Both the position numbers and the translations under genes were made by a program. DNA of 64,000 nt, taken from positions 178 to 64,177 of the forward strand of contig JBGPUE010000010.1 of assembly GCA_041491005.1 (NCBI GenBank), read 5' to 3'. Every line of letters starts with the position of its first letter. The stretch's first letter is position 1. Below are positions 33,192 through 62,900 of this stretch, piece by piece. The stretch is from Candidatus Binataceae bacterium (GTDB lineage Bacteria; Desulfobacterota; Binatia; Binatales; Binataceae). The notes beneath the pieces are model-generated. The model worked only from the letters and a program-made list of their open reading frames with translations. It was not told where the DNA came from and made no database searches.

Positions 33192-33980
33192 CTATTTCGC
33201 CAACGCTTGGCCTTCTTTGGCGGCGCCCGTGCAGCGGAGGGCACACTTGTCGGGGACCGGCCAAAGGCCCGGCGCGTTCGGCTCTATGCGCTCGCCCAGT
33301 GCAATCAGAAAAGGACCTGAAAGTAGATAGCCGGTAGCGAAGAGAAATGCTGCGAGCTGGGGTAAGGCCACTAGAACGCTCAAGGTGACGATCATCGCGA
33401 TCATCGTTGGAAGCGATAGGCGCCGAAGGTTGAGTGATTTGAAGCTCGGATATGGAACGCGTGAAACCATCAGGCCCCCCAAAATCAATGTCAATCCAGC
33501 GATCACTGCACATAGTGTGCGGGGCGCGGTGATCTCGAAGTATTGGTATGCGAGCACGACGCCCGCGACCATTGCGGCGGCAGCGGGAACGGGCAGACCG
33601 ACGAAGCGGCTCTTGTCGACACTACCTGCCTGGATATTGAAGCGCGCGAGGCGCAGCGCCGCACACACGACATAGAGGCCGCAAATCGTCGCGCCCCATA
33701 CACCCAGTGGCTCGAGCGCCCAGGTATAGACGAGCACTGCGGGCGCCACGCCGAAGGCCGTTACATCGGAAAGGCTGTCAAATTCCACTCCAATGGCGCT
33801 GGTGGTGCGCAGGGCGCGAGCTATCGACCCATCGAGCCAGTCGAACACAACCGCGATTTCGGTCATGAGCGCGGCGCGTCCGTAATGACCATGAACGGCG
33901 AAGACCAGCGAGAAGAAACCAATCAAAAGTCCAAGCGAAGTAGTCGCTTCAGGTAGCAGCGCGCTCATAAGCGAGGTCAT
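33192..33980 (-). CDS. pssA: CDP-diacylglycerol--serine O-phosphatidyltransferase (CDP-alcohol phosphatidyltransferase family)
   Basis: DWLDGSIARALRTTSAIGVEFDSLSDVTAFGVAPA matches DG(x)2AR...G(x)3D(x)3D. Multiple TM segments. Start ambiguous (33980 chosen; the listed ORF starts at 34043). Confidence 0.85.
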   Translation of the reverse strand: MTSLMSALLPEATTSLGLLIGFFSLVFAVHGHYGRAALMTEIAVVFDWLDGSIARALRTTSAIGVEFDSLSDVTAFGVAPAVLVYTWALEPLGVWGATICGLYVVCAALRLARFNIQAGSVDKSRFVGLPVPAAAAMVAGVVLAYQYFEITAPRTLCAVIAGLTLILGGLMVSRVPYPSFKSLNLRRLSLPTMIAMIVTLSVLVALPQLAAFLFATGYLLSGPFLIALGERIEPNAPGLWPVPDKCALRCTGAAKEGQALAK

Positions 33981-34093
33981 CTCGCTGCGCGCCTCCTGTC
34001 TGGGAGATGCAGGTCGCACGGCGTCCCTTTTACAACCGTCCACAGCCTGATTTCTCCGGTATCTCGAACGATTCCGGTGCGAGAAATCGCGTT

Positions 34094-34109
34094 TGCAAGG
34101 TTATCGCCG
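34094..34109 (-). promoter_or_regulatory. Candidate sigma-54 promoter ahead of pssA (weakest of the set)
   Basis: The minus strand reads CGGCGATAACCTTGCA, with GG and TTGCA at exact -24/-12 spacing. It lies immediately downstream of the hpf stop codon (2 nt away) and is 52-115 nt from the alternative pssA starts. Confidence 0.3.
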
Positions 34110-34110
34110 G

Positions 34111-34644
34111 CTAGTCAGCCAACGTGACGGTGCTGGCCTGCGGACCCTTCTCGCCCTCTTCTTCGGCGAAGCGGACATGACTGCCGACTTCGAGACGCTC
34201 GAAGCCGGGCGCCAGCACGCTGTTGCGATGGAAGTAGATCTCGCGACCGTCGGGCGTCTCGAGGAATCCGTAGCCGTCATCGCTGAAGAGCCTCGCGACG
34301 CGCGCCAAGGCCGGCCCTTCGTGGCTCTTAACCGCGCCGCGCACCTCGCGCACGTGGTCTTCAAGCCGCCGCCGGGCCGCGTCGAAGGCCTCGCGGATCG
34401 CCGTCATGAGTTCCTCGTCGGACTGATGGCTAATCGCGAGTTCGCCCCTCGGGACCTTCAGGTCGATTCGAATCTTGAACGGACCGCCCCGGCGGTGATG
34501 GCGCACCGGAGCTTCGACCGCGATGCGGCATCCGCTGATTTGGGGATCAAACTGTTCGAGCTTCGCAGCCCTGCGCCGAAGCTCAGCCTCTTCTGCCTCG
34601 GTCAACTGAAAGTTACGCGCTGTGATTTGAACCGGATATTCCAC
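34111..34644 (-). CDS. hpf: Ribosome hibernation factor (HPF/RaiA, S30AE fold) fused to a C-terminal cold-shock domain
   Basis: 177-aa ORF with a GTG start and GAGAGGA SD. The N-terminal ~105 aa are HPF/RaiA-like (VQITARNFQLTEAEEAELRRRAAKLEQF...FKIRIDLKVPRGELAI...EELMTAIREAFDAARRRLED). The C-terminal ~65 aa are CSD-like (ARLFSDDGYGFLETPDGREIYFHRNSVLAPGFERLEVGSHVRFAEEEGEKGPQASTV). Confidence 0.85.
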   Translation of the reverse strand: MEYPVQITARNFQLTEAEEAELRRRAAKLEQFDPQISGCRIAVEAPVRHHRRGGPFKIRIDLKVPRGELAISHQSDEELMTAIREAFDAARRRLEDHVREVRGAVKSHEGPALARVARLFSDDGYGFLETPDGREIYFHRNSVLAPGFERLEVGSHVRFAEEEGEKGPQASTVTLAD

Positions 34645-34670
34645 GTCGTTCCTCTCTTAGCCGAGCTTTC

Positions 34671-34686
34671 CGCAATCCCTGTGCCA
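34671..34686 (-). promoter_or_regulatory. Sigma-54 (-24/-12) promoter of hpf-CSD
   Basis: The minus strand reads TGGCACAGGGATTGCG, a full match to TGGCAC-N5-TTGCW. The -12 GC is 28 nt upstream of the GTG start. Confidence 0.6.
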
Positions 34687-34826
34687 CCAGTCACGAACGC
34701 CAGCTTGGCCGAATCGGCGGCCGTTGTGTCACCAAGAGAGACACGCGTGACCCCGTTGGGCGCAAACTTTGAAGTGACGGGCGTGGCGGTTGGCGGCCGA
34801 CCCTTCTGACGCACGATCGGCGTTCA

Positions 34827-34842
34827 CGGCGCACGTCTTGCA
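34827..34842 (+). promoter_or_regulatory. Candidate sigma-54 promoter of archease-rtcB
   Basis: CGGCGCACGTCTTGCA: GGC and TTGCA at exact consensus spacing, 37 nt upstream of the archease ATG. It is divergent from the hpf promoter. Confidence 0.45.
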
Positions 34843-34877
34843 AGTTGGCCTGATCGGGCTAGGCTCGTCACAGATCG

Positions 34878-35300
34878 ATGCCCAGCGACGAATTCTACCG
34901 TGAGATCGAGCACACCGGGGATGCGGGTGTCGAGCTCGTCGCCACGTCGCGCGCTGAACTGTTCCGCAGGGCCGCGATCGCGATCGCGCGGCTGATGGTG
35001 GCGCCCGAGGGCGTCCGCCCGATCGAGCGGCGCGAGGTGCGGGTCAGTGCAGTGAGCGATGCCGACCTGATGCACGACCTGCTCGCGGCGTTGCTCAACT
35101 TGTTCCTGGTTGAAGGGTTCATTTGGTGCGATGCGGTGGTGAATGAAGACGGCGATTCAGTGCGCGCGGACGTAGTCGGCGAACGCTATGATCCCGCGCG
35201 CCACGAGCTGCGCACCGAGATCAAAGCCGTGACCTACCATCAGCTGTCGGTCGAGCGCGTGGGAGATCGCTGGCAGGCGCAGGTGATTTTCGACATCTAG
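34878..35300 (+). CDS. Archease (RtcB activator)
   Basis: 140-aa ORF with the N-terminal YREIEHTGDAGVELVA (HT.D motif) and C-terminal IKAVTYHQLSVE typical of archease. It lies directly upstream of rtcB. Confidence 0.85.
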   Translation: MPSDEFYREIEHTGDAGVELVATSRAELFRRAAIAIARLMVAPEGVRPIERREVRVSAVSDADLMHDLLAALLNLFLVEGFIWCDAVVNEDGDSVRADVVGERYDPARHELRTEIKAVTYHQLSVERVGDRWQAQVIFDI

Positions 35301-35359
35301 GCTGCCCCGCGCGCAATCGTGCGAAGCGCGGCCGTCGAACGCGTCGGCGGTATCCGGTT

Positions 35360-36796
35360 ATGGAACTCCAGAAGATCAGCGACTTTCTATGGGAAATCCC
35401 GCGCCATGGAGCGATGCGCGTGCCGGGGCGGATTTACGCCAGCCAGCAGATGATCGACGAACTCCGCGATGATCCAGCGCTGACGCAGGTCGCGAACGTC
35501 GCGTGCCTGCCCGGCATCGTCGGCTACTCGCTCGCGATGCCCGATATCCATTGGGGCTACGGATTTCCGATTGGCGGTGTTGCCGCGACCGATGCCGACG
35601 AAGGAGTGATTTCACCCGGCGGTGTCGGCTACGACATCAACTGCGGCGTGCGGCTGATCAAGACCAACCTCGAGTACACGGCCATCGCGGACAAAGTTGA
35701 TCGTCTGGCTGACGCGCTCTTCGATGCTGTGCCCGCGGGCGTTGGCTCCAGCGGCGCGATTCCCGGCCTCGCGACCGACGAGCTCAAACGTCTGCTCGGC
35801 TCCGGCGCCGTATGGGCGATGAACCACGGCTACGCTTCGATGGATGATCTCGAGCACACCGAAGAGAGCGGCCGGCTCGAGATGGCTGACCCATCGGCCG
35901 TCAGCGAGATGGCGCTCAGGCGCGGGCGCATCCAGCTCGGCACACTCGGCTCGGGCAATCACTTCCTCGAATGCGACCGTGTCGATCAGATCTACGACCC
36001 CGACATCGCGCGCGCCTTCGGCCTCGAGCTCGGCCAAGTGACTGTGATTATCCATTCAGGCTCGCGCGGACTGGGCCATCAGATCTGCGACGACCATTTG
36101 CGCGTGATCGGCAAGGCGATGAGCGGTTACGGGATCACTCTACCCGACCGCCAACTCGCCTCGGTGCCGATCCGCTCGCCGGAGGGTCGTGCCTACCTGG
36201 GCGCGATGGCGGCGGCGGCCAACTTCGCCTGGTGCAACCGGCAGATCATGATGCATCTGGCCGAGCGCGCCTTCATGGAGACGCTGGGCACAGGGCCGCG
36301 CGAAGTCGGCTTCTCGTTGCTGTACGACGTTTGCCATAACATCGCCAAGTTCGAGCGCCATGTGGTGGGCGGTGTCGAACGGCGCGTATGTGTGCATCGC
36401 AAAGGTGCAACGCGCGCCTTCGGCCCAGGCCATCCGGCGCTGCCCATCGCCTTTCGAATGATCGGGCAGCCAGTGCTGATCCCCGGTGACATGGGCCGCT
36501 ATTCGTATGTGCTGGTGGGACGCGAACGTGCGATGGCCGAGACCTTCGGTTCGACCTGTCACGGCGCTGGGCGCTTAATGAGCCGCGCCGAAGCCAAGCG
36601 CCGGGCGCGCGGCCGCGACCTACTGGCGGAATTGCGGGAGGCCGGCGTGACGATCAGGTACCAAGGCCGTTCGACAGTCGCGGAGGAAATGCCGGCCGCT
36701 TACAAGGATGTCGCAGACGTGGTCGGAGTGATGGAAGCGGCTGGCGTCAGCAAGCGAGTGGCGCGGCTCAAACCCTTCGCCGTAATAAAGGGTTGA
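35360..36796 (+). CDS. rtcB: RNA 3'-phosphate ligase RtcB
   Basis: 478-aa ORF with MPDIHWGYGFPIGGVAA, GVGYDINCGVR, GSGNHFLE, HSGSRGLGHQ, HRKGATRA and CHGAGR. Confidence 0.95.
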   Translation: MELQKISDFLWEIPRHGAMRVPGRIYASQQMIDELRDDPALTQVANVACLPGIVGYSLAMPDIHWGYGFPIGGVAATDADEGVISPGGVGYDINCGVRLIKTNLEYTAIADKVDRLADALFDAVPAGVGSSGAIPGLATDELKRLLGSGAVWAMNHGYASMDDLEHTEESGRLEMADPSAVSEMALRRGRIQLGTLGSGNHFLECDRVDQIYDPDIARAFGLELGQVTVIIHSGSRGLGHQICDDHLRVIGKAMSGYGITLPDRQLASVPIRSPEGRAYLGAMAAAANFAWCNRQIMMHLAERAFMETLGTGPREVGFSLLYDVCHNIAKFERHVVGGVERRVCVHRKGATRAFGPGHPALPIAFRMIGQPVLIPGDMGRYSYVLVGRERAMAETFGSTCHGAGRLMSRAEAKRRARGRDLLAELREAGVTIRYQGRSTVAEEMPAAYKDVADVVGVMEAAGVSKRVARLKPFAVIKG

Positions 36797-37132
36797 TGCC
36801 GCGTCCATCGGCCTAGCCACCGCTATTGACGTTATTGAGTCCTACGAGTGTGTCAGGCGATGCGCCGAGCGCTCTGGATGCCGTAAGCGTCAGCCGCGTC
36901 GCCGCAGTGCGCGATTACGCGACGCGAATCTGCCTGATTGGCGCTGCTGCATCTAACGGAGTCATTGGTTCCCGGCTGACCCTCCTTACGAAAGCACCCA
37001 TCTCCGACATACTCTGTCTTTCGACATGGCGTTCCAATTCATAAGCAGCGATGGTGCGATTCGCTGGACTTAGACGCGAGCATCGGCGCATCCAGTTGAT
37101 TGTGCGGGGCTGAATACCTCCGCCTGTTTGTG

Positions 37133-37148
37133 CGGCAGGAGAATTGCT
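37133..37148 (+). promoter_or_regulatory. Candidate sigma-54 promoter of usp
   Basis: CGGCAGGAGAATTGCT: GGCA and TTGCT at exact -24/-12 spacing, 26 nt upstream of the ATG at 37173. Confidence 0.5.
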
Positions 37149-37172
37149 CAGGGCTCATGCAATAAGTCGGCG

Positions 37173-37583
37173 ATGAGACTGCTGTTCCGAAAGATTCTTT
37201 GTCCTATCGATTTCGACCGCATCGCGATCGGAGCAATCCAACTCGCGCGCGAGCTAGCCGGGCGAGACGGCGGCCTCGTCTACCTCTTGTGCGTCGTCCC
37301 CAAAGACCGGACTCGTCTGAAAGCCGACTTGGAGCAGGTCGCACACAACAGCTTGCGCGGGATTGGCCGCAAATGGTTCGAGGGAAAAGCGCCGTACGAG
37401 ATCCTCGTTCGCGCCGGCCGGCCAGCGCGGGCGGTGCTTGATGCGGCGGAGGAACTCGGCGTTGACGTCGTGGTGATGGCAACTCATGGGCGAACAGGAA
37501 CCAGGCGTGTGCGTCTGGGCAGCGTTACCGAGGAAGTGGTTCGGCAGTCGACACGACCGGTGGTGACAATCAGGCCAACGTAG
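37173..37583 (+). CDS. Universal stress protein (UspA family)
   Basis: MRLLFRKILCPIDFD... and the C-terminal VVVMATHGRTGTRRVRLGSVTEEVVRQSTRPVVTIRP (G-2x-G-9x-GS/T ATP-binding type). The listed ORF start at 37128 is probably an extension. Confidence 0.85.
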   Translation: MRLLFRKILCPIDFDRIAIGAIQLARELAGRDGGLVYLLCVVPKDRTRLKADLEQVAHNSLRGIGRKWFEGKAPYEILVRAGRPARAVLDAAEELGVDVVVMATHGRTGTRRVRLGSVTEEVVRQSTRPVVTIRPT

Positions 37584-37637
37584 GGCTTGGCCTGCTTCGT
37601 CGATCTTAACGCGCCAAATCGAGGAGGACATCGCACA

Positions 37638-37838
37638 ATGAGCAGATACAATTGGGACGAAATCAACCGCACGGTTGAGGACTTAACCAAGCGTTACAAC
37701 ATCGCAGCGGTCGACAGCGTGACCGTCGGTGGAAATAGCGATGGAGTCGAGTTGACGCTCACCTCGCTGACCCCCGAGCAAGCCGAGCAGATCTTCAGGC
37801 TCATCGGGCTCAAGCAAGTCGAGCTCACAGTGCTCTGA
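37638..37838 (+). CDS. Small hypothetical protein (66 aa)
   Basis: ATG at 37638 preceded by GAGGAGG at a good distance. The sequence MSRYNWDEINRTVEDLTKRYNIAAVDSVTVGGNSDGVELTLTSLTPEQAEQIFRLIGLKQVELTVL has no family I recognise. The coding call rests on the RBS and its position within the operon. Confidence 0.5.
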   Translation: MSRYNWDEINRTVEDLTKRYNIAAVDSVTVGGNSDGVELTLTSLTPEQAEQIFRLIGLKQVELTVL

Positions 37839-38109
37839 TCGCGCATCAAGCCGCCTCACTCTCTCGTTGACGGTCCGCAATGGTAGTCGTCGCGAAGAGC
37901 ACCCTTGTTCCGACGATACGGCGGAGTCGCGTAGATGCGGCGAGGCTGCTTCGTCCCCCGCTTCGATGCCGGGCCTCACGATGTTTGTGTGGAGCGATCC
38001 GGAGCGCGGCTGGCGCCTTTGGAAACACATCAGAGGGGGCTGGCTTACCGTGGTTCACTGTGGCCTACCCGGAAGCTGAGAATTCAGTGCAACGAATCCA
38101 GGAGTTCGA

Positions 38110-38125
38110 TGGCAAGTTTCTTGCG
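38110..38125 (+). promoter_or_regulatory. Candidate sigma-54 promoter of hsp20
   Basis: TGGCAAGTTTCTTGCG: TGGCA and TTGC at exact -24/-12 spacing, 47 nt upstream of the hsp20 ATG, which has a strong AAGGAGGAG SD. Confidence 0.55.
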
Positions 38126-38170
38126 ACACAGCATCATCGAACACCAACAATTTGAAAGGAGGAGAGATCA

Positions 38171-38623
38171 ATGGGAGCATTAACCCCATGGAGGCCGTTT
38201 CGCGAAATGGAGCGATGGGCGCGCAATCTGGAGGGCCGCTTTCCGCGAGTCTTTGAGGACTGGCCGTTTCGGGCCGAGGAAGCGGAGTTTCTGCCGCCGA
38301 TTGAGAGCTTCGTCCAGAACGGCAATATCGTCGTGCGCGCCGACGTTCCCGGACTGGAGGCCAAGGACATCGAGGTCAGCGTTTTGGGCAACGTGCTGAC
38401 GATCAAAGGCGAGCGCAGGGATCAGAAGGAAGTCAAGGCCGAGGATTACATCCGGCGCGAGATCTCCTACGGCTCCTTCGAGCGCAGGCTTACGCTGCCC
38501 GATGGCGCCGATGCCGACAAGGTCAAGGCGCAGTTCAAAAACGGGACGGTCGAGATCACGATGCCGATGGCCAAGGGCGCCAGCCCCAAGAAAGTGCTGG
38601 TGGAGAGCGCAGAGAAGAAGTAG
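38171..38623 (+). CDS. Hsp20 / alpha-crystallin family small heat-shock protein
   Basis: 150-aa ORF with an alpha-crystallin domain: PPIESFVQNGNIVVRADVPGLEAKDIEVSVLGNVLTIKGER...ISYGSFERRLTLP...KAQFKNGTVEITMP. Confidence 0.9.
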   Translation: MGALTPWRPFREMERWARNLEGRFPRVFEDWPFRAEEAEFLPPIESFVQNGNIVVRADVPGLEAKDIEVSVLGNVLTIKGERRDQKEVKAEDYIRREISYGSFERRLTLPDGADADKVKAQFKNGTVEITMPMAKGASPKKVLVESAEKK

Positions 38624-38734
38624 TCAATCGGTCACAGGGGCAGGCGGCTACCACGCATCGCAGTTGTGCCTGCCTCCCCCGCGGCACTGGATTGTCGCAG
38701 CTCACGCGGCCTGACGCGAAAGGAGGAGATTCAG

Positions 38735-39337
38735 ATGCCAGCCGGGTCGACGATCTTGAATACCAATCACGAGCGGGTCGAGAAGCTCCGAACAGTGCTA
38801 GTCAGCCAACGCGACCATGCGTGGGCAAGGGTGCGGGAGTTCCGTCACGACCAGGAAGGCGACGCGATTCCGCCGCCGGCGGATGAGATGGACCTGGCGC
38901 GTTCGACCGCCGACCTCGAGACTCATGCGAGCCTGATCGAACAAGCGGAAGACCGGCTCGCACAAATCGACGACGCGCTGGCGCGGCTCAACGAAGGCCG
39001 CTATGGGATCTGCGCAAAATGCGTCGAGGAGATCGCGGTCGAGCGTCTCAACACGCTGCCCTTCGTGCTGTACTGCGTCGATTGCCAGCGCGAACTCAAC
39101 CGTGCGCGCCGCCGCGGCGAGGGCAGCCTGTCGCGCAGTTTCGGCCGCCGCTGGGAGACGCCGCTGGAGATGGATGAATCGCTGGAGAGGACCGACGCGA
39201 TGAGCCAGCCCGAGGAAGAAACCACCATACGCGAAGGCCGGCCTTTCGGCCGCGAAGAGGGCACTCCAGACCACGGCCGGATGCCGCGTACGGGCAGGGG
39301 CTTGGTTCGGCGCGGACGGCCCAAGCGCAGTGCGTAG
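38735..39337 (+). CDS. DksA/TraR-family C4 zinc-finger protein with a long basic C-terminal extension
   Basis: ATG at 38735 after AAGGAGGA. It has a coiled-coil region with DEMDLA (DxxDxA tip motif) and the zinc finger CAKC-x17-CVDC. About 80 further residues are rich in Arg/Glu/Gly. Confidence 0.8.
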   Translation: MPAGSTILNTNHERVEKLRTVLVSQRDHAWARVREFRHDQEGDAIPPPADEMDLARSTADLETHASLIEQAEDRLAQIDDALARLNEGRYGICAKCVEEIAVERLNTLPFVLYCVDCQRELNRARRRGEGSLSRSFGRRWETPLEMDESLERTDAMSQPEEETTIREGRPFGREEGTPDHGRMPRTGRGLVRRGRPKRSA

Positions 39338-39355
39338 TCGCGCAGGGGATACCGG

Positions 39356-39802
39356 ATGAGCAAACTATTCAACCGGATTCTCTGCCCGATCGCGTTCGAG
39401 CACGAGTCGTTGAGCGCCCTCGATCTGGCCATAGCGATCGCGCAGCAGAACGACGCGACCCTCGTGCTGCTCAACGTCGCGCCGCTCCCAATCGGAGCCG
39501 GCGAATTCGCGCCGACGCTCGATCCGTATCCCGCGATCGAGCAAGTGGCGCGCGAACGGCTTGAGCGACTGGCCCACGATCGGCTTGAAGGCAAGGTCGC
39601 ATACAACACCCATGTCGTCGCGGGCGATCCGGCGACGCAGATCCTCCGTGCGATCGAGGCCTTCGCCGCCGATCTGGTCGTGATGGGGACGCATGGGCGC
39701 AAGGGCGTCAAACATCTGCTGTTGGGGAGCGTCGCGGAGAAGGTCGTGCGCGAGTCACCGCGGCCTGTGCTGACCGTGCGTCCCGCAGAGGAAGCGCGCT
39801 GA
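39356..39802 (+). CDS. Universal stress protein (UspA family)
   Basis: 148-aa ORF with NRILCPIAFEHES... and LVVMGTHGRKGVKHLLLGSVAEKVVRESPRPVLTVRP. Confidence 0.85.
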   Translation: MSKLFNRILCPIAFEHESLSALDLAIAIAQQNDATLVLLNVAPLPIGAGEFAPTLDPYPAIEQVARERLERLAHDRLEGKVAYNTHVVAGDPATQILRAIEAFAADLVVMGTHGRKGVKHLLLGSVAEKVVRESPRPVLTVRPAEEAR

Positions 39803-39828
39803 CGGCTTGATACGCGGGAGGCAGACAC

Positions 39829-40479
39829 TTGCAGATAACTACCGACTCAGTTGAACTTGAGGGCGACCTCGAGATGCCGGCGGGCGTTGCGCGGGGAATC
39901 GTGATCTTCGCGCATGGGAGCGGAAGCAGCAGGCTCAGCCCGCGTAACATGTACGTGGCTGCCCGTTTGCGTGCGGCCGGAGTCGCCACATTGCTTTTCG
40001 ACCTGCTCACCGAGGCCGAGGCGCTGGATCGCCAAAACGTCTTCGATATGGAGCTGCTCGCCCGCCGCTTGCGGGCCGCTACCGCATCGGTGCGCCGCCA
40101 TCGGCTCGCCGGGATACTACCGGTCGGCTATTTCGGCGCCAGTACCGGCGCTGCTGCTGCACTAATCGCCGCAACGCGCGATCCAGCGATCACCGCGATC
40201 GTGTCGCGCGGTGGGCGACCCGACCTCGCGGGAGATGCGCTCGCTCAGGTGAAGGCGCCGACGCTGCTCATCGTCGGCGGCGAAGACCGCGAAGTGCTGG
40301 AGTTGAATCGGCGCGCGCTCAGGCGCCTGAGCTGCGAGAAAGAACTCCGGGTAGTTCCGGGTGCGACGCATCTGTTCGAGGAGCCGGGAACGCTCGACGA
40401 GGTAGTGAAGCTCGCCAGCGATTGGTTCGTGCGCCATCTGCACGCTCACCCGGGCGAAAAGGAGACCCATGTTCACTAA
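39829..40479 (+). CDS. Dienelactone-hydrolase-like alpha/beta hydrolase
   Basis: 216-aa ORF (TTG start as listed) with GIVIFAHGSGSSRLSPRNMYVAARLRAAGVATLLFDLLT and the nucleophile elbow FGASTGAAAAL. Its 3' end overlaps the next gene by 11 nt. Confidence 0.8.
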   Translation: MQITTDSVELEGDLEMPAGVARGIVIFAHGSGSSRLSPRNMYVAARLRAAGVATLLFDLLTEAEALDRQNVFDMELLARRLRAATASVRRHRLAGILPVGYFGASTGAAAALIAATRDPAITAIVSRGGRPDLAGDALAQVKAPTLLIVGGEDREVLELNRRALRRLSCEKELRVVPGATHLFEEPGTLDEVVKLASDWFVRHLHAHPGEKETHVH

Positions 40480-41173
40480 TCGCCAGGATGCGGGACGCCG
40501 GCTCGCCAAGGCTCTCGCCCGCTACAAGGATGACCATCCCGTCGTGCTGGCACTGCCGCGCGGTGGAGTTCCGGTCGGTTTCGAGGTAGCCAAGGCGCTG
40601 AGCGCGCCGCTGGACATTATCGTCGTGCGCAAGCTGGGCGCTCCCGGACAACACGAGCTGGGGATCGGCGCGGTCGTCGACGGCGACCATCCGCAGACCG
40701 TGCTCAATGAGGAACTGCTGCGAAGGATCGATGTGCCCAAGAGTTACCTCGAAGCAGAGATCCTGCGCGAGCTTGAGGAGATCCACCGCCGCCAGCAGAC
40801 CTACCGCAAGGGGCATCCACCGGTCGATCCAGCCGGGCGGATTGTAATCGTCGTCGATGATGGGATCGCGACTGGCGCCTCGATACGCGCGGCGTTGCGC
40901 GGTCTGCGAAAGCTCGCTCCCCGCCGTCTGGTGCTCGCCGTGCCGGTCGCACCCGCCGAGACGATCGAGTCGCTCAGAGCCGAGGTCGACGAGGTGGTTT
41001 GTCTTGCGACCCCGCCCGATTTCTTCGCTATCGGACAGTACTATGACGATTTCAGGCAGACTTCTGACGCGCAGGTAGTCGAGCTGCTCGACAAGGCGCG
41101 CAATCGTGTGCTGGCGCCCTCGCCGCCAGCGGCACGCTCTCCATCAGAAGAGAGCAAAGCGCCCTCCTGCTAG
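40469..41173 (+). CDS. Phosphoribosyltransferase-domain protein
   Basis: 234-aa ORF with MFTNRQDAGRRLAKAL...VVLALPRGGVPVG and the PRPP-binding loop IVIVVDDGIATGAS. Confidence 0.85.
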   Translation: MFTNRQDAGRRLAKALARYKDDHPVVLALPRGGVPVGFEVAKALSAPLDIIVVRKLGAPGQHELGIGAVVDGDHPQTVLNEELLRRIDVPKSYLEAEILRELEEIHRRQQTYRKGHPPVDPAGRIVIVVDDGIATGASIRAALRGLRKLAPRRLVLAVPVAPAETIESLRAEVDEVVCLATPPDFFAIGQYYDDFRQTSDAQVVELLDKARNRVLAPSPPAARSPSEESKAPSC

Positions 41174-55830: not shown

Positions 55831-57162
55831 TCATTCGATTCCATAGCGTCTGCGTTTGCGCCAGAGCGTGGTGGCGTTGATTCCGAGCGTTGCGGCGGCC
55901 TCATCAAGTGTCGCGCTCTCGGCCAGCACTCGCGCGATATGTTCTCGTTCGACGTCTTCGAGACTCGCGGCAGGCGAGGTGGTGCCCGGCGCCTGCGGTA
56001 TATCGCGGAAGATCGAATCGGGCAGATCGTCGGGCCCGATGGTATCGCTGCGGCTTAGCACCGCGGCGCGCTCAAGAGCGTTACGCAACTCGCGCACGTT
56101 TCCCGGCCATTGATAGCGGGCCAGGGCCGCGCCGGCCTGCGGCGCGAGCCGGAGCTGCGGACGGTGGTTGCGAATCGCCGCCGCACGCAGCATCCACTCC
56201 GCCAGCGCCGGGATGTCCTCGCGGCGCTCGCACAGCGGCGGCACGCGGAGCGTAATCACGTTGAGCCGGTAGAACAGATCTTCGCGGAAGCGGCGCGCCT
56301 TGACCTCGTCTTCCAGATCGCGATTGGACGCGGCGATGATTCGCGCGTCGACCCGGATCGTGCGTTCTCCGCCCACGCGTTCGAAGCTCTGTTCCTGGAC
56401 GAAGCGTAGAAATTTGGTCTGCAGTGCGGCCGAGAGGTCGGCGATCTCGTCGAGAAATACCGTGCCGCCGTCGGCCGCCTCCAGGCGGCCGGGCTTGTCC
56501 TTGATGGCGCCGGTGAATGAACCGCGCATATGGCCGAAGAGCTCGCTTTCGAGCAGCTGCTCCGAGAGCGTCGTGCAGTTGACCACGACGAACGGGCGCT
56601 CGCATCGCGGACTCCATCTGTGAATCTGGCGGGCGAGGACGTTCTTGCCGGTGCCGCTCTCGCCGCTGAGCAGGATCGTCGCCTCGCTGCGCGCAGCCTG
56701 CCGCGCGGTTTCCAGCATGCGAACCATTGCGGCGCTGCGCGATTCCAGCATCGGCATCTCGTCGATAGTCTCGCGTAGCACCTGGTTCTCCGCCTGCAGG
56801 CTGTGCATCTGCAGCGCGCGATCGACCACATGGCGTATCTGGTCGAGCGAGAAAGGCTTGGCAATATAGTCGGAGGCGCCGGCCTTCATCGCGGCCACTG
56901 CGTTCTCGACGGTCGCGTAAGCCGTCATCAGGATCACCGGCGTGTAGGGATGCAGCCGCTTCGCCTCGTTGAGCAGCTCGAGTCCGTTCATCTCCGCCAT
57001 CCGGAAGTCGGTCAAAACCAGATCCAGCGGTCCTGCGGCGAGCGTCTGTATCGCCGCGACGCCGCTGGCGGCTTCGCGCACCTCGTGTCCGAGCGACTGG
57101 AAGAACGCCGCGAGGCTGCGGCGAATGTTCTTCTCGTCGTCGACGATGAGCAGTCGCGCCAT
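55831..57162 (-). CDS. Sigma-54-dependent response regulator (NtrC family)
   Basis: Met at 57162 (MARLLIVDDEKNIRR). It has a receiver domain (LVLTDFRMAEMNG), an AAA+ sigma-54 interaction domain (GESGTGKN, GSFTGA variant of GAFTGA) and a C-terminal HTH (ATLGINATTLWRKRRRYGI). An ATGA overlap joins it to the kinase stop. The listed 551-aa ORF has a spurious 108-codon extension. Confidence 0.9.
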   Translation of the reverse strand: MARLLIVDDEKNIRRSLAAFFQSLGHEVREAASGVAAIQTLAAGPLDLVLTDFRMAEMNGLELLNEAKRLHPYTPVILMTAYATVENAVAAMKAGASDYIAKPFSLDQIRHVVDRALQMHSLQAENQVLRETIDEMPMLESRSAAMVRMLETARQAARSEATILLSGESGTGKNVLARQIHRWSPRCERPFVVVNCTTLSEQLLESELFGHMRGSFTGAIKDKPGRLEAADGGTVFLDEIADLSAALQTKFLRFVQEQSFERVGGERTIRVDARIIAASNRDLEDEVKARRFREDLFYRLNVITLRVPPLCERREDIPALAEWMLRAAAIRNHRPQLRLAPQAGAALARYQWPGNVRELRNALERAAVLSRSDTIGPDDLPDSIFRDIPQAPGTTSPAASLEDVEREHIARVLAESATLDEAAATLGINATTLWRKRRRYGIE

Positions 57163-58949
57163 CAGGCCTCCGTCATCGCCGGCAATTCGACTACGAAGCG
57201 GCTGCCGCGATCGCCGTTGCTTTCGACGAAGATCCGGCCGCCGTGTGCCTCGACGATGTCCCTTACGATTGCGAGTCCCAGTCCTGCCGAACCGGCTCCA
57301 CCGCCGTTGGCGGCGTATTGAGCGAAGCGCTCGAAGATGTAGTCGCGAATCTCCGGCGCAATCCCGGGCCCCGAGTCCGCGACTTCGAGTATCACCGTAT
57401 GATTGCGCGGCCGCGCAACGATCTCGATTTTTCCGCCGCTGGGCGTATAGCGCAGCGCATTGCCGATCAGATTGGAGACCATCCACGACAGCTTCACAGG
57501 ATCTCCGTTGAGCTGCGGCACAGGCTCGATGCGCCGCTCAAGCACGACTTGCTTCTCGCGCGCCTGCAGGGCGAAGCGTTCGCTCACCTCCTCCGCGAGG
57601 CGGCCGATGTCGAGCGGCCGGCGCTGCACCGCGATCGCGGCTGCTTCGCCGCGGGCGAGGCTCAGCAGGTTGTCGCTAAGCTGCTTCATCCGCGCGCATT
57701 CCTCAAGGATAGCGCCCAACAACGCCCGCTGTCTTGGCTCCAGGCCCTCATGCTCGCGGCCGAGCAGCTCGGCAGAAAGCGCGAGCGAGGTGAGCGGCGT
57801 GCGGAGCTCATGCGAGAGCGTCGCGACCAGGTTCGTGCGTGCGCGATCCTGATCGCGCAGGTAGGTAACATCCTGCATGATGAGCAGCGTACCCAGCGCG
57901 CCGCCCTCGGGATGGCGCAGCGGCACCGGCTTCAGCACGTAAGAGTGTTCGCGGCCGCGCACGTGGAGTTCCACCTCGATGCGCTGGGCGCCGGAAGCGG
58001 ACTTGCGCGACGTCCTGAGCGCGTCCCGGATGCGCAGGTAGTGCGGATGGTTGCTGCTCAGATCATCGAAGATGCTGCCGAGCGCGTCGGCCGCATCGAT
58101 GCCCAGAATGATCGCCGCGATCTCGTTGATGTGTGCGACGACACCTCCCGAGTCAATCAGCACGACGCCGTCCTCGAGGCTCTCGATGATCGCCTCGGTC
58201 TTGCTCTTCTCATAGACCAGCCGCTCGACGTTGAGCTTCTCATACTGTTCCAGCCGCTCGGCCATCTCGTTGAACTCGCGCGCCACGATATCGAGTTCGG
58301 TGAGTCGCTGCGGGCCGAGCCGCAAATGCGTGTCGCGGCGGCTGATTCCGCGCAGCCGCTCGGCAAGTTCCGTCAGCGGCCTCGACAGTGTCCACGACAG
58401 CCCCCACGACAGTGCCACGCCGGTGAAAATGAGCACCAGCAATCCGGCTGCGAACTCGTAGGTCAGGCGCATGCCAAGCCGCATCGCGCGGCTATCGGCA
58501 CGGAACATCGCCGCCCGGTTCATCTGGATCAGATCGTCGAGCAACCCATGAAGCCGGTCATACCCTGCGTCGCGCTCCGCCTGGGGCTGCCCAGCGGCGA
58601 TCTCGCGAAATAACTCGAGAGCATTCGACTCGACGCTGTGTGCCAGCTCCGGCTCACCCACTTCCGTATGGATATGATTCTCGACGTCAATCCAGTGCAT
58701 AAAGGCAGCGCTCGAGGAGGGCAGCGCCGCGCGCCCTTGGCCCGCACGATCGGCAAGTTGCAACCGCCTGAGCTCTGAGTGCATGTGCTGAGCGGCGTCG
58801 ATGCTGACGTAGTTGCGGTACAGTGTCTCGCGAATCGCACCGCCGAGCCGGTACAAGTGCGGCAGGGCGTATCCGCCAAGAATCAAAACCACCGCCAGCA
58901 TCAGCAACGTACCGTTGCGAATCCGGCCGCGGAGCGATGGCGTCTTCAT
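57162..58949 (-). CDS. Sensor histidine kinase (TM-sensor-TM, HAMP, PAS, HisKA, HATPase)
   Basis: Met at 58949 (MKTPSLRGRIRNGTLLMLAVVLILGGY), with a second TM LLVLIFTGVALSWGLSW followed by a HAMP-like segment. H-box LSHELRTPLTSL; ATPase boxes GNALRYT, DSGPGI and GLGLAIV. An ATGA overlap joins it to the kdpD-N stop. Confidence 0.9.
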   Translation of the reverse strand: MKTPSLRGRIRNGTLLMLAVVLILGGYALPHLYRLGGAIRETLYRNYVSIDAAQHMHSELRRLQLADRAGQGRAALPSSSAAFMHWIDVENHIHTEVGEPELAHSVESNALELFREIAAGQPQAERDAGYDRLHGLLDDLIQMNRAAMFRADSRAMRLGMRLTYEFAAGLLVLIFTGVALSWGLSWTLSRPLTELAERLRGISRRDTHLRLGPQRLTELDIVAREFNEMAERLEQYEKLNVERLVYEKSKTEAIIESLEDGVVLIDSGGVVAHINEIAAIILGIDAADALGSIFDDLSSNHPHYLRIRDALRTSRKSASGAQRIEVELHVRGREHSYVLKPVPLRHPEGGALGTLLIMQDVTYLRDQDRARTNLVATLSHELRTPLTSLALSAELLGREHEGLEPRQRALLGAILEECARMKQLSDNLLSLARGEAAAIAVQRRPLDIGRLAEEVSERFALQAREKQVVLERRIEPVPQLNGDPVKLSWMVSNLIGNALRYTPSGGKIEIVARPRNHTVILEVADSGPGIAPEIRDYIFERFAQYAANGGGAGSAGLGLAIVRDIVEAHGGRIFVESNGDRGSRFVVELPAMTEA

Positions 58950-60163
58950 CGCGCGTTCTCCTGCTCGGAGTCGCCCACAATCTCGACGTCGACACCACGC
59001 GCCTGCGCGAGTATGCGCATGGTCACATCGAGGTGAAGCCACCGCCGCCAGATCGGCTGATGAGTACGCCCGAGGATGATTTTCGTGATGCCCTTTTCGC
59101 GGGCAAAGTCAAGCATCGTCCTGACGATGTCATCGCCCTTGAGCCAGACTGATTCCGCGCCCAGATCGCCAGCCAGGTTGATGTTGTCGAGCAGCGCCAC
59201 GAAGTCGCTGGTGCGCACCTTGTGCACCGATTCGGACGGCGTTTCCACGTGGATGGCATACCACTCGGCGTTGAGCCGCCCCGCGATACGCGAGGCCTTG
59301 CGCAACAGCTTGTCACCGTCGGCCGGATTGGAGGAGAGCCCGACCATGATCCGCTCGGTGATTTGGAGCCGGCGGCCGCCTTCGCGCTTGAGCGCTTCCT
59401 GCCCTTCGCGCTGGCGGCTGAGCCCGCGCGCAACCTCACGAAGAGCCATCTCGCGCAACGAGGCAAGATTGCTCGGCTTGAAGAAGTTTCGCAGCGCCTG
59501 CTCGATCTGCGCGGCAGGATAGATCTTGCCTTCTCGCAGCCGCTCACGGAGCGCCTCGACCGTCACGTCGACGTTTACGACCTGATCCGCACGCGCAAGG
59601 AAGGCGTCGGGCACGGTCTCGCGCACCTCGATACCCGTCACCCGTTTCATCAGCGGGTTGAGGCTCTCGACGTGCTGGATGTTCATCGCCGAGATGACGT
59701 TGATGCCTGCGGCAACCAGATCCTCGACGTCCTGGTAGCGCTTTTCGTGTTTGGAGCCGGGTACGTTGGTATGCGCCAGCTCGTCGACGATCGCGACCTC
59801 CGGTTTGCGCGCGAGGATGGCGTCGACATCCATCTCCTGCAACGTCACGCCCCGGTGCGCAATCGTGCGGCGCGGGACGACCTCCAATCCCGCGATTTTC
59901 TCGGCAGTTTCGGCGCGCCCATGAGTCTCGACCACCCCGATTACAGCGTCGACGCCTTTGGCGCGCAGCTGATGCGCCTCTTCGAGCATCTCGTACGTCT
60001 TGCCGACACCCGCTGCAGCGCCGACGTAGATCTTGAGGCGGCCCTTGAACGCCTGCGGAACGAGATCGAGAAACGACTCGGGCTCGGGGCGCACATCGTC
60101 AGGGGGCCGGGCAGAGCCACGGTCCGCTTCACCCTTCGGCGACTGCGTCATTCGCCAAGTCAT
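58946..60163 (-). CDS. kdpD: Stand-alone KdpD N-terminal sensor domain + Usp-like domain (no transmitter)
   Basis: 405-aa ORF with LKIYVGAAAGVGKTYEMLEEAHQLRAKGVDAVIGVVETHGRAET (KdpD N-domain with Walker A), then a Usp-like region (ERIMVGLSSNPADGDKLLRKASRIAGRLNAEWYAIHVE). The ORF ends before any membrane, GAF or kinase domain. Confidence 0.85.
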   Translation of the reverse strand: MTWRMTQSPKGEADRGSARPPDDVRPEPESFLDLVPQAFKGRLKIYVGAAAGVGKTYEMLEEAHQLRAKGVDAVIGVVETHGRAETAEKIAGLEVVPRRTIAHRGVTLQEMDVDAILARKPEVAIVDELAHTNVPGSKHEKRYQDVEDLVAAGINVISAMNIQHVESLNPLMKRVTGIEVRETVPDAFLARADQVVNVDVTVEALRERLREGKIYPAAQIEQALRNFFKPSNLASLREMALREVARGLSRQREGQEALKREGGRRLQITERIMVGLSSNPADGDKLLRKASRIAGRLNAEWYAIHVETPSESVHKVRTSDFVALLDNINLAGDLGAESVWLKGDDIVRTMLDFAREKGITKIILGRTHQPIWRRWLHLDVTMRILAQARGVDVEIVGDSEQENAR

Positions 60164-60238
60164 TTGCGCGGCTGCCCTGTCGATCCGGTCTCGGCAGGGA
60201 TCCCTTCCTATTATCCATCTAAGGTCAGCTCGATAGTA

Positions 60239-60844
60239 TCATCTCTCGTTGCGAACTTGCCGAGTGCGGTCCGGGGACAATGCGTCGAGGGCGAGGTTCA
60301 GGCGCAAAACATTCACCCCGGGCTCGCCGAAGATTTCGGCCCATCGCCGACTTGTATTCACCCTGACTAGCCGGCGTACCGCGTCTTCGGCCAAGCCTCT
60401 GGTCTTTGCGACGCGGGCGACCTGGATATCCGCGGCGGCCGGGCTGATCTCGGGATCCAATCCACTACCCGACGCAGTGACCAGATCGATCGGTACCTGT
60501 GCCGGCCGCACGCCCTCGGTTTCGACCACCGCCTTGAGCCGCGTCTGGACGGCGTCGATCAGCGTCTTGCTGGTTGGGCCGAGGTTCGAGCCGCCCGAAC
60601 TCAATCCATCGTAGCCCTTCGCCCCAGCCGTTGAGGGCCGCCCGTGAAAGTTGCGCGCACTTGAGAAGTTCTGTCCGATAAGTGACGACCCGACCAGCTT
60701 GCCGTTCACATATACGAGGCTGCCATTGGCCTGTAGCGGGAAGAGCAACTGGGCCACCGCCCAGACTGCCAGCGGGTAGATGACGCCCGTTAGCAACGTC
60801 ATCACCACGGTAAGCCGGGTTGCGATCCACAGTGAACGCATCAT
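60239..60844 (-). CDS. kdpC: Potassium-transporting ATPase subunit C
   Basis: 201-aa ORF with an N-terminal TM, FHGRPS and SGGSNLGPTS...SGSGLDPEISPAAA, typical of KdpC. Confidence 0.9.
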   Translation of the reverse strand: MMRSLWIATRLTVVMTLLTGVIYPLAVWAVAQLLFPLQANGSLVYVNGKLVGSSLIGQNFSSARNFHGRPSTAGAKGYDGLSSGGSNLGPTSKTLIDAVQTRLKAVVETEGVRPAQVPIDLVTASGSGLDPEISPAAADIQVARVAKTRGLAEDAVRRLVRVNTSRRWAEIFGEPGVNVLRLNLALDALSPDRTRQVRNER

Positions 60845-60851
60845 CTGTACC

Positions 60852-62894
60852 TCAGGCCAGATGCAGAGCAGTAATCATCAGATCGATCGCCTTGATCCCG
60901 ATGAACGGAACTACCACTCCGCCGAATCCATAAATGAAGAGATTGCGCGTGAAGATCGCGGCAGCGCCCAATGGCCGATACCGCACGCCGCGCAGCGCAA
61001 GCGGGATTAGCGCGATGATAATCAGGGCATTGAAGATGACTGCAGAGAGGATCGCGCTTTGGGGCGTCGCGAGACGCATCACGTTGAGCGCCTGGAGCTC
61101 GGGATAGCCAACCACGAACATGGCCGGGATGATCGCGAAATACTTGGCGACATCGTTGGCGATCGAGAACGTGGTCAATGCGCCACGCGTCATCAGCAAC
61201 TGCTTGCCGATCTCGACCACCTCCATGATCTTGGTCGGATTCGAATCGAGATCGACCATGTTGCCGGCCTCGCGCGCGGCCTGAGTGCCGGCGTTCATTG
61301 CGATACCCACGTCGGCCTGCGCCAGCGCCGGCGCATCGTTGGTGCCGTCGCCGATCATCGCGACCAGCTTGCCTTGCGCCTGTTCCTCGCGGATCAATCT
61401 GAGCTTGGCTTCAGGAGTGGCCTCGGCCAGAAAGCCGCCGACTCCCGACTCGCGAGCGATTGCCGCCGCGGTTAGAGCGTTATCGCCGGTGATCATCACC
61501 GTTCGCATGCCCATCGCATGCAGCCGCTCGAAGCGTTCGCGGATGCCCTCCTTGATGACGTCCTTCAGATGGATGACGCCGAGCGCGCGCGGCCCATCGG
61601 CCACCACCAGCGGCGTGCCACCATCGCGCGCGATTCGCTCGACAGCCGCGGCGAGATCGGCTGGCACGGTACCACCCTGCTCGCGCACGAACGCGATGAC
61701 CTGATCGGCGGCGCCTTTGCGGATGCTGCGGTTTGCGATATTGACGCCGCTCATCCGCGTCTGAGCAGAGAATGGGATGAACTCGACACCGTCCTCGGAC
61801 AGTGGACGGCCGCGGAGATTGAAATCACGCTTGGCGAGCACCATGATCGACCGCCCCTCCGGTGTCTCATCAGCGAGCGAGGCGAACTGTGCGGCCTCTG
61901 CCAGCGCGGCGATCTCGACGCCCTCGACCGGAACGAACTCGTACGCCATCCGATTGCCCAGCGTGATCGTACCGGTCTTATCCAGCAACAGCGTATCGAC
62001 GTCACCCGCCGCCTCGACCGCCCGCCCGGACATCGCGAGCACGTTGTGCTGCACCAGCCGGTCCATGCCGGCAATTCCGATCGCGGACAGCAACCCGCCA
62101 ATGGTGGTCGGAATAAGACAGACCAGCAACGACACCAGCACTGGCAGCGAAAGAGCTACGCTTGCGTACCGTGCGAACGGATAGAGTGAGACAATCACCA
62201 GCATAAAGATGATAGTCAGTCCGGCAAGAAGGATTTCGAGTGCGATTTCGTTGGGTGTCTTCTGACGCCGTGCGCCTTCGACCAGGGCGATCATCCTGTC
62301 CAGGAAGGTTTCACCCGGGTTGGCAGTGATGCGGACCTTAATCCAGTCCGAGATCACGGTCGTGCCGCCGGTGACCGCACTGCGATCGCCGCCGCTCTCA
62401 CGAATCACGGGCGCCGATTCGCCGGTGATCGCGGCCTCGTTGACCGCGGCGACGCCTTCGATCACTTCGCCGTCGCCCGGGATCACCTCGCCTGCCTCGA
62501 CCAGTACTACGTCGCCACGCCTGAGCGAGGTCGCAGAGACCAATGTGGTCGCGCTGGTTTCGGTCACGAGTTTGGCCTGGGTCTCGATGCGGGTCTTGCG
62601 CAGATTGTCGGCCTGCGCCTTGCCGCGGCCCTCGGCCATCGCTTCTGCGAAATTGGCGAACAGCACTGTGAACCAAAGCCATAGCGTGATTTGCAGTTCG
62701 AAGACCGCCAGCGCGTGGCGTCCGGCTGCGAAATCGCGGATCAGGATCATCGCGGTCATGAGGCTGGTGACTTCGACCACGAACATCACCGGATTGCGAA
62801 TCATCAGGCGCGGATCGAGTTTGTACAACGCATCCAGGGCCGCACGCGTAACGATCGCGCGATCCCATACAGCAATCTGCTTTTTCGATGCCAT
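60852..62894 (-). CDS. kdpB: Potassium-transporting P-type ATPase subunit B
   Basis: 680-aa ORF with [18 protein letters not shown] and [16 protein letters not shown]. Confidence 0.95.
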
Positions 62895-62900
62895 GACTTC

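Follow-up and report, generated by a model that had tools for sequence, protein, structure and literature searches.

The 64-kb stretch of DNA from a Candidatus Binatia bacterium analysed here (hereafter the window, meaning the whole stretch at its full length) contains a stress-survival island of the dormancy type, ten genes at 34111-41173, the main transcription units of which are probably driven by promoters of the sigma-54 (-24/-12) class. The predicted units are hpf-CSD, a gene for an HPF protein fused to a cold-shock domain (CSD); usp1-orf66; hsp20-dksA-usp2-hydrolase-PRT; and possibly archease-rtcB. Judged by sequence, three of them are convincingly of the sigma-54 type. Taken by itself, the window makes a sigma-54 case that is suggestive, not conclusive; at the level of sequence, the comparison with related Binatia loci is decisive for control of the sigma-54 type. 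From these patterns we infer actual dependence on sigma-54 and a single common activator. An initial annotation of the same DNA had held that all promoters of the island look sigma-54-dependent, and the comparative evidence bears this out for hsp20, usp1 and hpf, leaves archease marginal and reduces the match ahead of the neighbouring pssA-like gene to chance.

The ten consecutive genes are those named in the initial annotation, and the open reading frame (ORF) listing together with Pfam confirms every named family, among them universal stress proteins (USPs) and a phosphoribosyltransferase (PRT):

34111-34644, minus strand: HPF (S30AE) and cold-shock-domain fusion, 177 aa (Pfam PF02482, 6e-12; PF00313, 2.9e-11)
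34878-35300, plus strand: archease (PF01951, 9e-37)
35360-36796, plus strand: RtcB RNA ligase (PF01139, 4e-174)
37173-37583, plus strand: usp1, USP (PF00582, 7e-24)
37638-37838, plus strand: 66-aa ORF with a strong ribosome-binding site, no Pfam family
38171-38623, plus strand: Hsp20 (Pfam)
38735 (probable start)-39337, plus strand: DksA/TraR-type zinc-finger protein (Pfam)
39356-39802, plus strand: usp2, USP (Pfam)
39829-40479, plus strand: alpha/beta hydrolase, dienelactone hydrolase (DLH)-like (Pfam)
40469-41173, plus strand: PRT (Pfam)
33192-34043, minus strand, left of the island: pssA-like CDP-alcohol phosphatidyltransferase (Pfam)

The pssA-like gene and prs form the left flank of the island, and GC content is uniform through the region. 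The closest RtcB homologues, at 65-77% identity, come from metagenome-assembled genomes that bear the label Candidatus Binatia or Binataceae. The start of usp1 (ATG 37173) is fixed by N-terminal alignment with other USPs, and the 66-aa ORF has neither a family nor a homologue among the related loci examined.

Position, spacing and scores of the -24/-12 elements

The five 16-mers quoted in the initial annotation are all present, at 34095 (-), 34672 (-), 34828 (+), 37134 (+) and 38111 (+). In each, GG and GC lie exactly 10 nt apart and the site points at the gene, that is, GGC-N7-TTGC or, equally, GG-N10-GC; the literal pattern GGC-N8-TTGC that had been given matches none of the five and was replaced by the N7 form. 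At the four in-island sites the -12 C lies 25-46 nt ahead of the start codon, in keeping with the 26-47 nt estimated earlier. The putative elements are:

34670-34688, minus strand: GGTGGCACAGGGATTGCGG, upstream of hpf, -12 C 27 nt before the GTG start
34825-34843, plus strand: CACGGCGCACGTCTTGCAA, marginal element upstream of archease
37131-37149, plus strand: TGCGGCAGGAGAATTGCTC, upstream of usp1, -12 C 25 nt before ATG 37173
38108-38126, plus strand: GATGGCAAGTTTCTTGCGA, upstream of hsp20, -12 C 46 nt before the ATG
34092-34110, minus strand: GG-N10-GC match ahead of pssA, right after the hpf stop codon

A ribosome-binding site, AGAGAGGAA, lies between the hpf element and the GTG start, and another, AAAGGAGGAG, precedes the hsp20 start. 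The archease element is divergent to that of hpf, at a distance of 138 nt.

Why should these matches be more than accidents? In DNA of 62% GC, GG-N10-GC will arise by chance, TTGC also resembling a sigma-70 -35 box, and on this explanation no promoter of the island would use sigma-54. In its favour, GGC-N7-TTGC occurs only 13 times on both strands of the window (128 kb), against 15.0 +/- 3.7 in shuffled sequence, a number that agrees with the earlier estimate of about one per 9-10 kb per strand and is not above expectation. Spacing and position speak against it. On a curated gene map, intergenic DNA oriented toward a downstream gene makes up 5.3% of the both-strand sequence, and it holds five of the 13 matches, all within 4 kb (34095-38124), whereas eleven other spacings (N2-N6 and N8-N13) give 0-2 oriented upstream matches (mean about 0.8; Poisson P about 0.001). 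The earlier claim that five oriented matches do not look like chance is upheld by this control and, for hsp20, usp1 and hpf, by their scores and conservation; it fails for pssA.

Two weight matrices were applied to the 127,964 positions of both strands. The published-site matrix (19 nt) is built from 175 sites, the Desulfovibrionales RegPrecise set plus well-characterised E. coli promoters (S2 Table, PMC12316311). The lineage matrix is built from 42 sites of the relatives only, chosen from matches to the general matrix. The five sites rank as follows:

hsp20 site: published-site matrix rank 1, 11.8 bits (the best of the whole window); lineage matrix rank 3
usp1 site: published-site matrix rank 6, 9.6 bits; lineage matrix rank 2, 15.6 bits
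archease site: published-site matrix rank 14, 8.3 bits; lineage matrix rank 41, 7.3 bits
hpf site: published-site matrix rank 55, 5.3 bits; lineage matrix rank 6, 12.2 bits
pssA site: published-site matrix rank 63, 4.8 bits; lineage matrix rank 466, 1.6 bits

Although its TGGCAC-N5-TTGC core is perfect, the hpf site loses score to G at -11 and -10; without those positions it ranks second. Measured against the extended consensus TGGCACG-N4-TTGCW, the hsp20, usp1 and hpf sites may be rated adequate to good as candidate promoters and the archease site marginal. The pssA gene was rejected as a regulon member on score, its site being best read as a chance match. Top ranks in two matrices are a further argument against chance; on the other side, coding DNA holds matches of similar general-matrix score. 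The comparison with coding DNA that the initial annotation had proposed comes out neither cleanly for nor cleanly against sigma-54 within the window, there being 14 coding and 3 upstream matches at 8 bits or more with the published-site matrix.

Conservation in related Binatia loci

Synteny of the full island around rtcB is not widespread in the relatives, and loci with the same gene kit were reached through HPF-CSD and Hsp20 homologues. Besides the genes of the window, these loci carry genes for CBS proteins, for class II ribonucleotide reductase (RNR) and for bacterial enhancer-binding proteins (bEBPs), the activators of sigma-54 promoters:

L172: class II RNR, then divergently hsp20-CBS-hpfCSD-dksA-usp-hydrolase-PRT
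L173 and L002: bEBP, USP, FtsH; then hsp20-CBS/Cpn60; then archease-RtcB-Prs; then hydrolase/PRT
L175: rtcB-USP/CBS, then class II RNR, then divergently hsp20-CBS-USP

In L172 and L173 the gene set again forms an island. All six hsp20 orthologues (window, L002, L172, L173, L174 and L175) keep TGG[C/T]...TTGC at a distance of 41-66 nt between the -12 C and the start, in flanking DNA that cannot be aligned across the six loci; the alignment of orthologues suggested in the initial annotation has thus found the element kept while its flanks drift. For hpf, a sigma-54-type site stands ahead of the unit in four of five other loci, namely the CBS-hpfCSD operons of L087, L089 and L090, with sites of 15.6-15.7 bits, and the hsp20 operon of L172; L085 has none. 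Genes for USPs have sites in most loci (L002, L096, L174, L176 and L177), and the usp1 element of the window is close to GGCAGGCGAATTGCTC in L002 and to GGCAAGCGAATTGCTC in L176. Where genes are taken from database calls, in seven related loci, the oriented upstream DNA amounts to 6% of the sequence and contains 12 of the 24 matches scoring 11 bits or more (binomial P = 3e-9). Given this enrichment, and an element position kept at every hsp20 orthologue and in the relatives' hpf and usp units, it is highly improbable that the matches of the island are all accidental.

The archease-rtcB pairing is kept in the relatives, and a site ahead of the rtcB operon occurs in 5 of 19 of them (L002, L173, L015, L095 and L096). 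In many others a TATAAT-like box stands 6-7 nt before the archease ATG (L004 at about 9530, L005 at about 9440, L007 at about 9540, L022 at about 6240, and also L003 and L099), which suggests leaderless or near-leaderless sigma-70 transcripts of archease-rtcB there. Set against the sigma-54-like sites of the other relatives, these boxes would mean that the promoter class of the operon switches within the lineage. For the window, the archease element gains credibility from its divergent pairing with hpf, since the relatives repeatedly have divergent promoter pairs, spaced at 66-244 nt, a range that includes the 138 nt of the window pair. It loses credibility through its TTGCAA, which can also be read as a sigma-70 -35 box in TTGCAA-N16-TAGGCT.

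These observations bear on an explanation in which the wiring of the island is mixed: only hsp20, and perhaps usp1, would be sigma-54-dependent, hpf and archease-rtcB would have sigma-70-type or near-leaderless promoters, and the genes would form a stress-gene neighbourhood, not a regulon. The low scores of archease and pssA fit this, as do the TATAAT boxes of the relatives, the alternative sigma-70 reading ahead of the window archease and the hpf gene of L085 that lacks a site. It must also accommodate the perfect core of the hpf site and its sixth rank with the lineage matrix, the divergent hpf/archease pair at a spacing typical of relatives, the four other loci in which hpf stands behind sigma-54-type sites, and a scan for sigma-70 consensus sequences that found no site ahead of any island gene. 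On balance, mixed wiring is unlikely, and sigma-54 promoters for the main units are the preferred reading.

How far does the hsp20 unit extend? Downstream of dksA, usp2, the hydrolase and PRT follow at gaps of 18 and 26 nt and then an overlap, and the same order, hsp20-(CBS-hpfCSD)-dksA-usp-hydrolase-PRT, is found in L172. Co-transcription of hsp20-dksA-usp2-hydrolase-PRT (38171-41173) as one unit is therefore probable. Between the hsp20 stop codon and the dksA-like gene lies a GC-rich inverted repeat without a T-run, GGGGCAGGC...GCCTGCCTCCCC (38633-38680, plus strand), a hairpin that may be an attenuator or a transcript-stabilising element. In L173 the hydrolase and PRT, two overlapping genes in the window, are fused into a single protein of 438 aa (14876-16192, minus strand), which suggests that they function together. 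Another RNA feature stands directly ahead of the usp1 promoter element:

37104-37123, plus strand: terminator-like hairpin

A search for structured RNA, including Y-RNA-like RNA, in the 377-nt gap after rtcB and the rest of the island gave no Rfam match at E<=1, and the fold z-score was -0.15.

A further 19-nt sigma-54-like element, ATGGCAGGCGAWTTGCTCC, is conserved between L002 (17959-17977, minus strand) and L173 (5088-5106, plus strand), where usp flanks it on one side and the 3' end of ftsH, toward which it points, on the other. Downstream of it there is no conservation of DNA or peptide between the two loci. The possibility that it is conserved as coding sequence for 'MAGELL' was rejected, the downstream peptides being unrelated, and the element may be the promoter of an antisense or small RNA.

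Activator and candidate enhancer

Under the proposed mechanism, sigma-54 RNA polymerase would sit on the elements as a closed complex that is unable to start alone, until an AAA+ enhancer-binding protein situated about 80-150 bp upstream hydrolysed ATP and opened it. The outcome would be a tight off/on switch for ribosome hibernation, RNA ligation and repair, the small heat-shock chaperone and USP functions. No rpoN gene was found in the window or in any related locus examined. That the organism uses sigma-54 is indicated by a canonical NtrC-type bEBP encoded in the window, where its gene closes a kdp cluster, and annotated sigma-54 regulators are many in Binataceae:

55831-57170, minus strand: NtrC-type enhancer-binding protein (REC, sigma-54 AAA+ with GSFTGA, HTH_8)

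This kdp-linked protein is unlikely to be the regulator of the island. The usual kdp arrangement includes an OmpR-type KdpE; here the cluster (55831-64000, minus strand) has the KdpD N-terminal sensor plus USP as a separate protein, followed by a HAMP-PAS histidine kinase and the NtrC-type activator. A near-identical strain (106-kb contig) has a sigma-54-like site, GATGGCGCGTTCTTTGCGC (L178, 7698-7716), in the intergenic DNA ahead of kdpF, 437 nt from the gene and again with G at -11; the long kdp leader of this strain yielded no riboswitch.

As the initial annotation had noted, there is no bEBP gene inside the island; there is none near it either, and the 64-kb window has no activator of the RtcR/CARF or globin type. 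In the relatives, a single bEBP family of about 500 aa with a GAFSGA loop stands at the island edge, in two copies in L002, in L173 and as a fragment in L174. The same family is abundant in Candidatus Binatus and Binataceae, and in two Ca. Binatus loci, L176 and L177, it lies beside a divergent pair of sigma-54-type promoters that serves, besides a CBS gene in each locus, a USP-CBS gene (L176) or a USP gene (L177). For the N-terminal 180 residues of this bEBP, no Pfam or PDB sequence match exceeds the threshold; below it they match Protoglobin (E 8e-4 to 5e-3) and RsbR (E 0.27). The AlphaFold model is confident (pLDDT 86), and in it the predicted protein shows a sensor-globin fold N-terminal to a sigma-54 AAA+ output module. 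A near-invariant His in 'SMHLFEES' (His119 of P0241) is a candidate proximal heme ligand, and non-heme RsbR-type globins match the domain equally well. Heme binding, like the nature of the signal, is something we infer for these proteins. If the relatives' activator works as a one-component regulator in this way, with its sensor-globin domain fused to the sigma-54 AAA+ module, the likely signal would be O2, NO, CO or redox. The activator gene for the window island is presumably elsewhere in the genome and would probably encode a globin-coupled bEBP as well. A literature search of incomplete coverage returned no description of a globin fused to a sigma-54 AAA+ activator, and in it the terms 'globin-coupled', 'AAA+' and 'sigma' occur together only in a paper on NmpR of Myxococcus.

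A small conserved protein of about 150 aa adjoins the globin-fused activator in L173 (3689-4153, minus strand) and L002 (18731-19387, minus strand), with a shared C-terminal motif, ...IVVxDD...WAPxAxVAYIAAxH.... The L002 copy has no Pfam family, and a 15-bit sigma-54-like site stands ahead of its gene. Small unannotated genes occupy the same position beside the activator in L176 and L177.

Where would such an activator bind? Two candidate sites stand out in the window:

38011-38031, plus strand: conserved block TGGCGCCTTTGGAAACACATC, candidate enhancer or upstream activating sequence (UAS), about 80-100 nt upstream of the hsp20 -24 element
34727-34738, minus strand: CTCTTGGTGACA, candidate upstream activator motif, CCTTTGGRNACA-like, between the divergent hpf and archease elements

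Ahead of its own hsp20, L002 shares 20 of 21 nt of TGGCGCCTTTGGAAACACATC within surrounding DNA that has diverged, and the core of the block, CCTTTGGRRACA, occurs once in the window (within TGGCGCCTTTGGAAACACATC) and twice in L002. A seed-and-refine motif search of 14 promoter-upstream regions returned CCTTTGGRNACA at 9.7 bits, against 6.6-7.9 bits in 12 shuffles, and copies resembling it lie in the window at hsp20 and in the hpf/archease intergenic region. We tentatively take this motif as the candidate binding site of the activator. Exact dyad and k-mer searches revealed no convincing shared palindromic enhancer, only the asymmetric CCTTTGGRNACA emerging.

The promoters could also be real and yet belong to several independent sigma-54 circuits, each unit having its own bEBP (rtcB might answer to an RtcR-like protein, for example, and hsp20 to one of the PspF or heat-shock type), so that there would be no single dormancy regulon. 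There is precedent in E. coli, where rtcB and ibpB have separate sigma-54 promoters, and at least three bEBP genes surround the island of L002; the lack of a clear shared palindromic UAS points the same way. Yet one globin-domain bEBP family recurs beside the islands, the CCTTTGGRNACA-like motif is common to the upstream DNA of several units, and no RtcR/CARF-type regulator is present. Separate circuits appear somewhat doubtful on this evidence, and a common activator is preferred.

A number of points weigh against sigma-54 control of the island as a whole. The case is wholly computational. The N7 pattern shows no window-wide excess, and at 8 bits coding matches outnumber upstream ones. The sites of the window are weaker than those of the relatives; the lineage matrix was itself assembled from general-matrix matches, and with it the archease site, at 7.3 bits, falls below the lowest training score of 8.7, while the pssA site scores poorly with both matrices. 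G at -11, found in the hpf and hsp20 sites, has a frequency of about 1% in the published set. The TATAAT boxes ahead of archease in six relatives, the hairpin between hsp20 and dksA, which leaves operon continuity unproven, the statistically thin UAS motif, and 64 kb without rpoN or a globin-type bEBP complete the list.

Elsewhere in the window, the top lineage-matrix site is TCTGGCACGCAGATCGCTC (2267-2285, plus strand), with 16.0 bits, and 11.0 bits with the published-site matrix. It falls within the final 26 nt of a gene for a GT2 glycosyltransferase (197-2293), 124 nt before a gene for a 1406-aa methyltransferase/GT1 protein (2409-6629). Possibly it is the sigma-54 promoter of a glycan or exopolysaccharide gene. 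The window also has a giant ORF (8578-17442, minus strand; about 2954 aa) of coding-type composition.

Known systems and the meaning of the island

The DosR (DevR) regulon of M. tuberculosis offers the closest parallel in gene content, as the initial annotation had proposed, and the Rv numbers cited there are correct. Its members include Rv0079 (RafH), Rv2631 (RtcB), Rv0570 (B12-dependent RNR), Rv0571c (PRT), Rv2626c, Rv2030c and Rv2031c (PMC5309233). Shared with the island are the S30AE/HPF-type factor (Rv0079/RafH), RtcB (Rv2631), several USPs, alpha-crystallin Hsp20 (Rv2031c) and PRT (Rv0571c), and shared in addition with the relatives' islands are the CBS protein (Rv2626c) and the B12-dependent class II RNR (Rv0570). 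It is plausible that heme-based gas sensing stands upstream of DosR and of the Binatia kit alike. The control differs, DosR being a two-component response regulator, whereas the elements of the Binatia island are of the -24/-12 sigma-54 type. DosR is a NarL/LuxR-type protein that acts at sigma-70-class promoters via Dev boxes. No DosR-type gene was seen in the island, and Dev boxes (TTSGGGACTWWAGTCCCSAA) have no core match with up to 3 mismatches there; two weak ones elsewhere in the window compare with 3.4 expected. The absence of Dev boxes from the island makes it a functional analogue of the DosR regulon, not a member. Actinobacteria are essentially without rpoN (PMC12316311).

The nearest experimentally characterised system is NmpRSTU of M. 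xanthus, in which a heme-dependent protoglobin-domain kinase acts through an NtrC-like bEBP on sigma-54 promoters of CBS, USP, cbb3 and hemN genes under hypoxia (J Bacteriol 2025, PMC11841059). Sigma-54 with a bEBP, and CBS and USP genes as targets, are thus common features. NmpR is the last component of a multi-kinase phosphorelay, with GCGCA-N5-TGCGC as its binding site, whereas in the relatives' Binatia proteins the predicted globin is fused directly to the AAA+ activator; the NmpR regulon has cbb3 oxidase, hemN and hemerythrin, and lacks HPF, RtcB, Hsp20 and PRT. In the window, if up to 2 mismatches are allowed, GCGCA-N5-TGCGC is matched 122 times where 120.6 are expected, and no tandem pairs lie upstream of promoters. 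The hpf/archease gap has two matches, each with 2 mismatches, and both overlap the -24/-12 elements.

The rtcB and ibpB genes of E. coli have listed sigma-54 promoters (S2 Table, PMC12316311); the RtcR-sigma-54-rtcBA system of E. coli and Salmonella shares RtcB with the island, and ibpB is, like hsp20, an Hsp20-family gene. The RtcR system differs in its divergent rtcR, which encodes a CARF-domain bEBP, and in rtcA, both of which the island lacks; rtcB here neighbours archease and hpf, and no in-island site is weaker than that of archease-rtcB. Among 720 compiled sigma-54 sites there is no hpf, usp or hsp entry by name, and sigma-54 control has been predicted for chaperones in Planctomycetota and Bacteroidota and for USPs in Planctomycetia (PMC12316311).

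The HPF-CSD fusion was considered as a novelty and rejected, the family being common and the architecture already described. HPF-Csp fusions (bioRxiv 10.1101/2025.11.04.686544) have, according to the searched passages of that paper, an HPF N-terminal domain joined to a cold-shock domain that replaces the dimerisation domain, as does the window protein; those passages deal with protein architecture and make no link to sigma-54 promoters or to such an island. The fusion family is very large (5590 database proteins at E<=1e-10), and in several lineages its genes adjoin those for CBS, USP, BON, class II RNR and RtcB. The earlier statement that a regulon of this composition has not been described therefore holds in part, given the precedents of E. 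coli rtcB and ibpB, M. xanthus NmpR and the HPF-Csp fusions. What would be new is the DosR-like composition under sigma-54-type elements, its conservation throughout the lineage and, in the relatives, the predicted one-component globin-AAA+ activator.

A more far-reaching reading, which we put forward tentatively as a possibility, is that Binatia switch on a DosR-like kit (HPF-CSD, RtcB/archease, USPs, Hsp20, CBS, class II RNR and hydrolase/PRT) via sigma-54 and a one-component, heme-globin-coupled bEBP that senses O2, NO or CO directly, the window island being one remote target. If so, globin-coupled sensors would gain a new class of output, and the mycobacterial hypoxia and dormancy response would have been convergently re-invented on a sigma-54 platform.

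Binatia are abundant uncultured bacteria of soils and sediments, and how they survive limitation of energy or oxygen is little understood. If sigma-54 control of the island is true, a dormancy kit of the M. tuberculosis DosR type has been kept as a unit in a distant phylum, on an all-or-none sigma-54 switch. A kit kept so far away under other wiring would argue that the gene set is an ancient functional module with interchangeable regulation. Ribosome hibernation (HPF-CSD) and RNA repair (RtcB/archease) would be tied to one predicted signal, and the globin-fused enhancer-binding protein, with promoters such as that of hsp20, would constitute a concrete regulator-promoter pair for an uncultured lineage. 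The conserved promoters may also serve as markers of dormancy states in soil metatranscriptomes.

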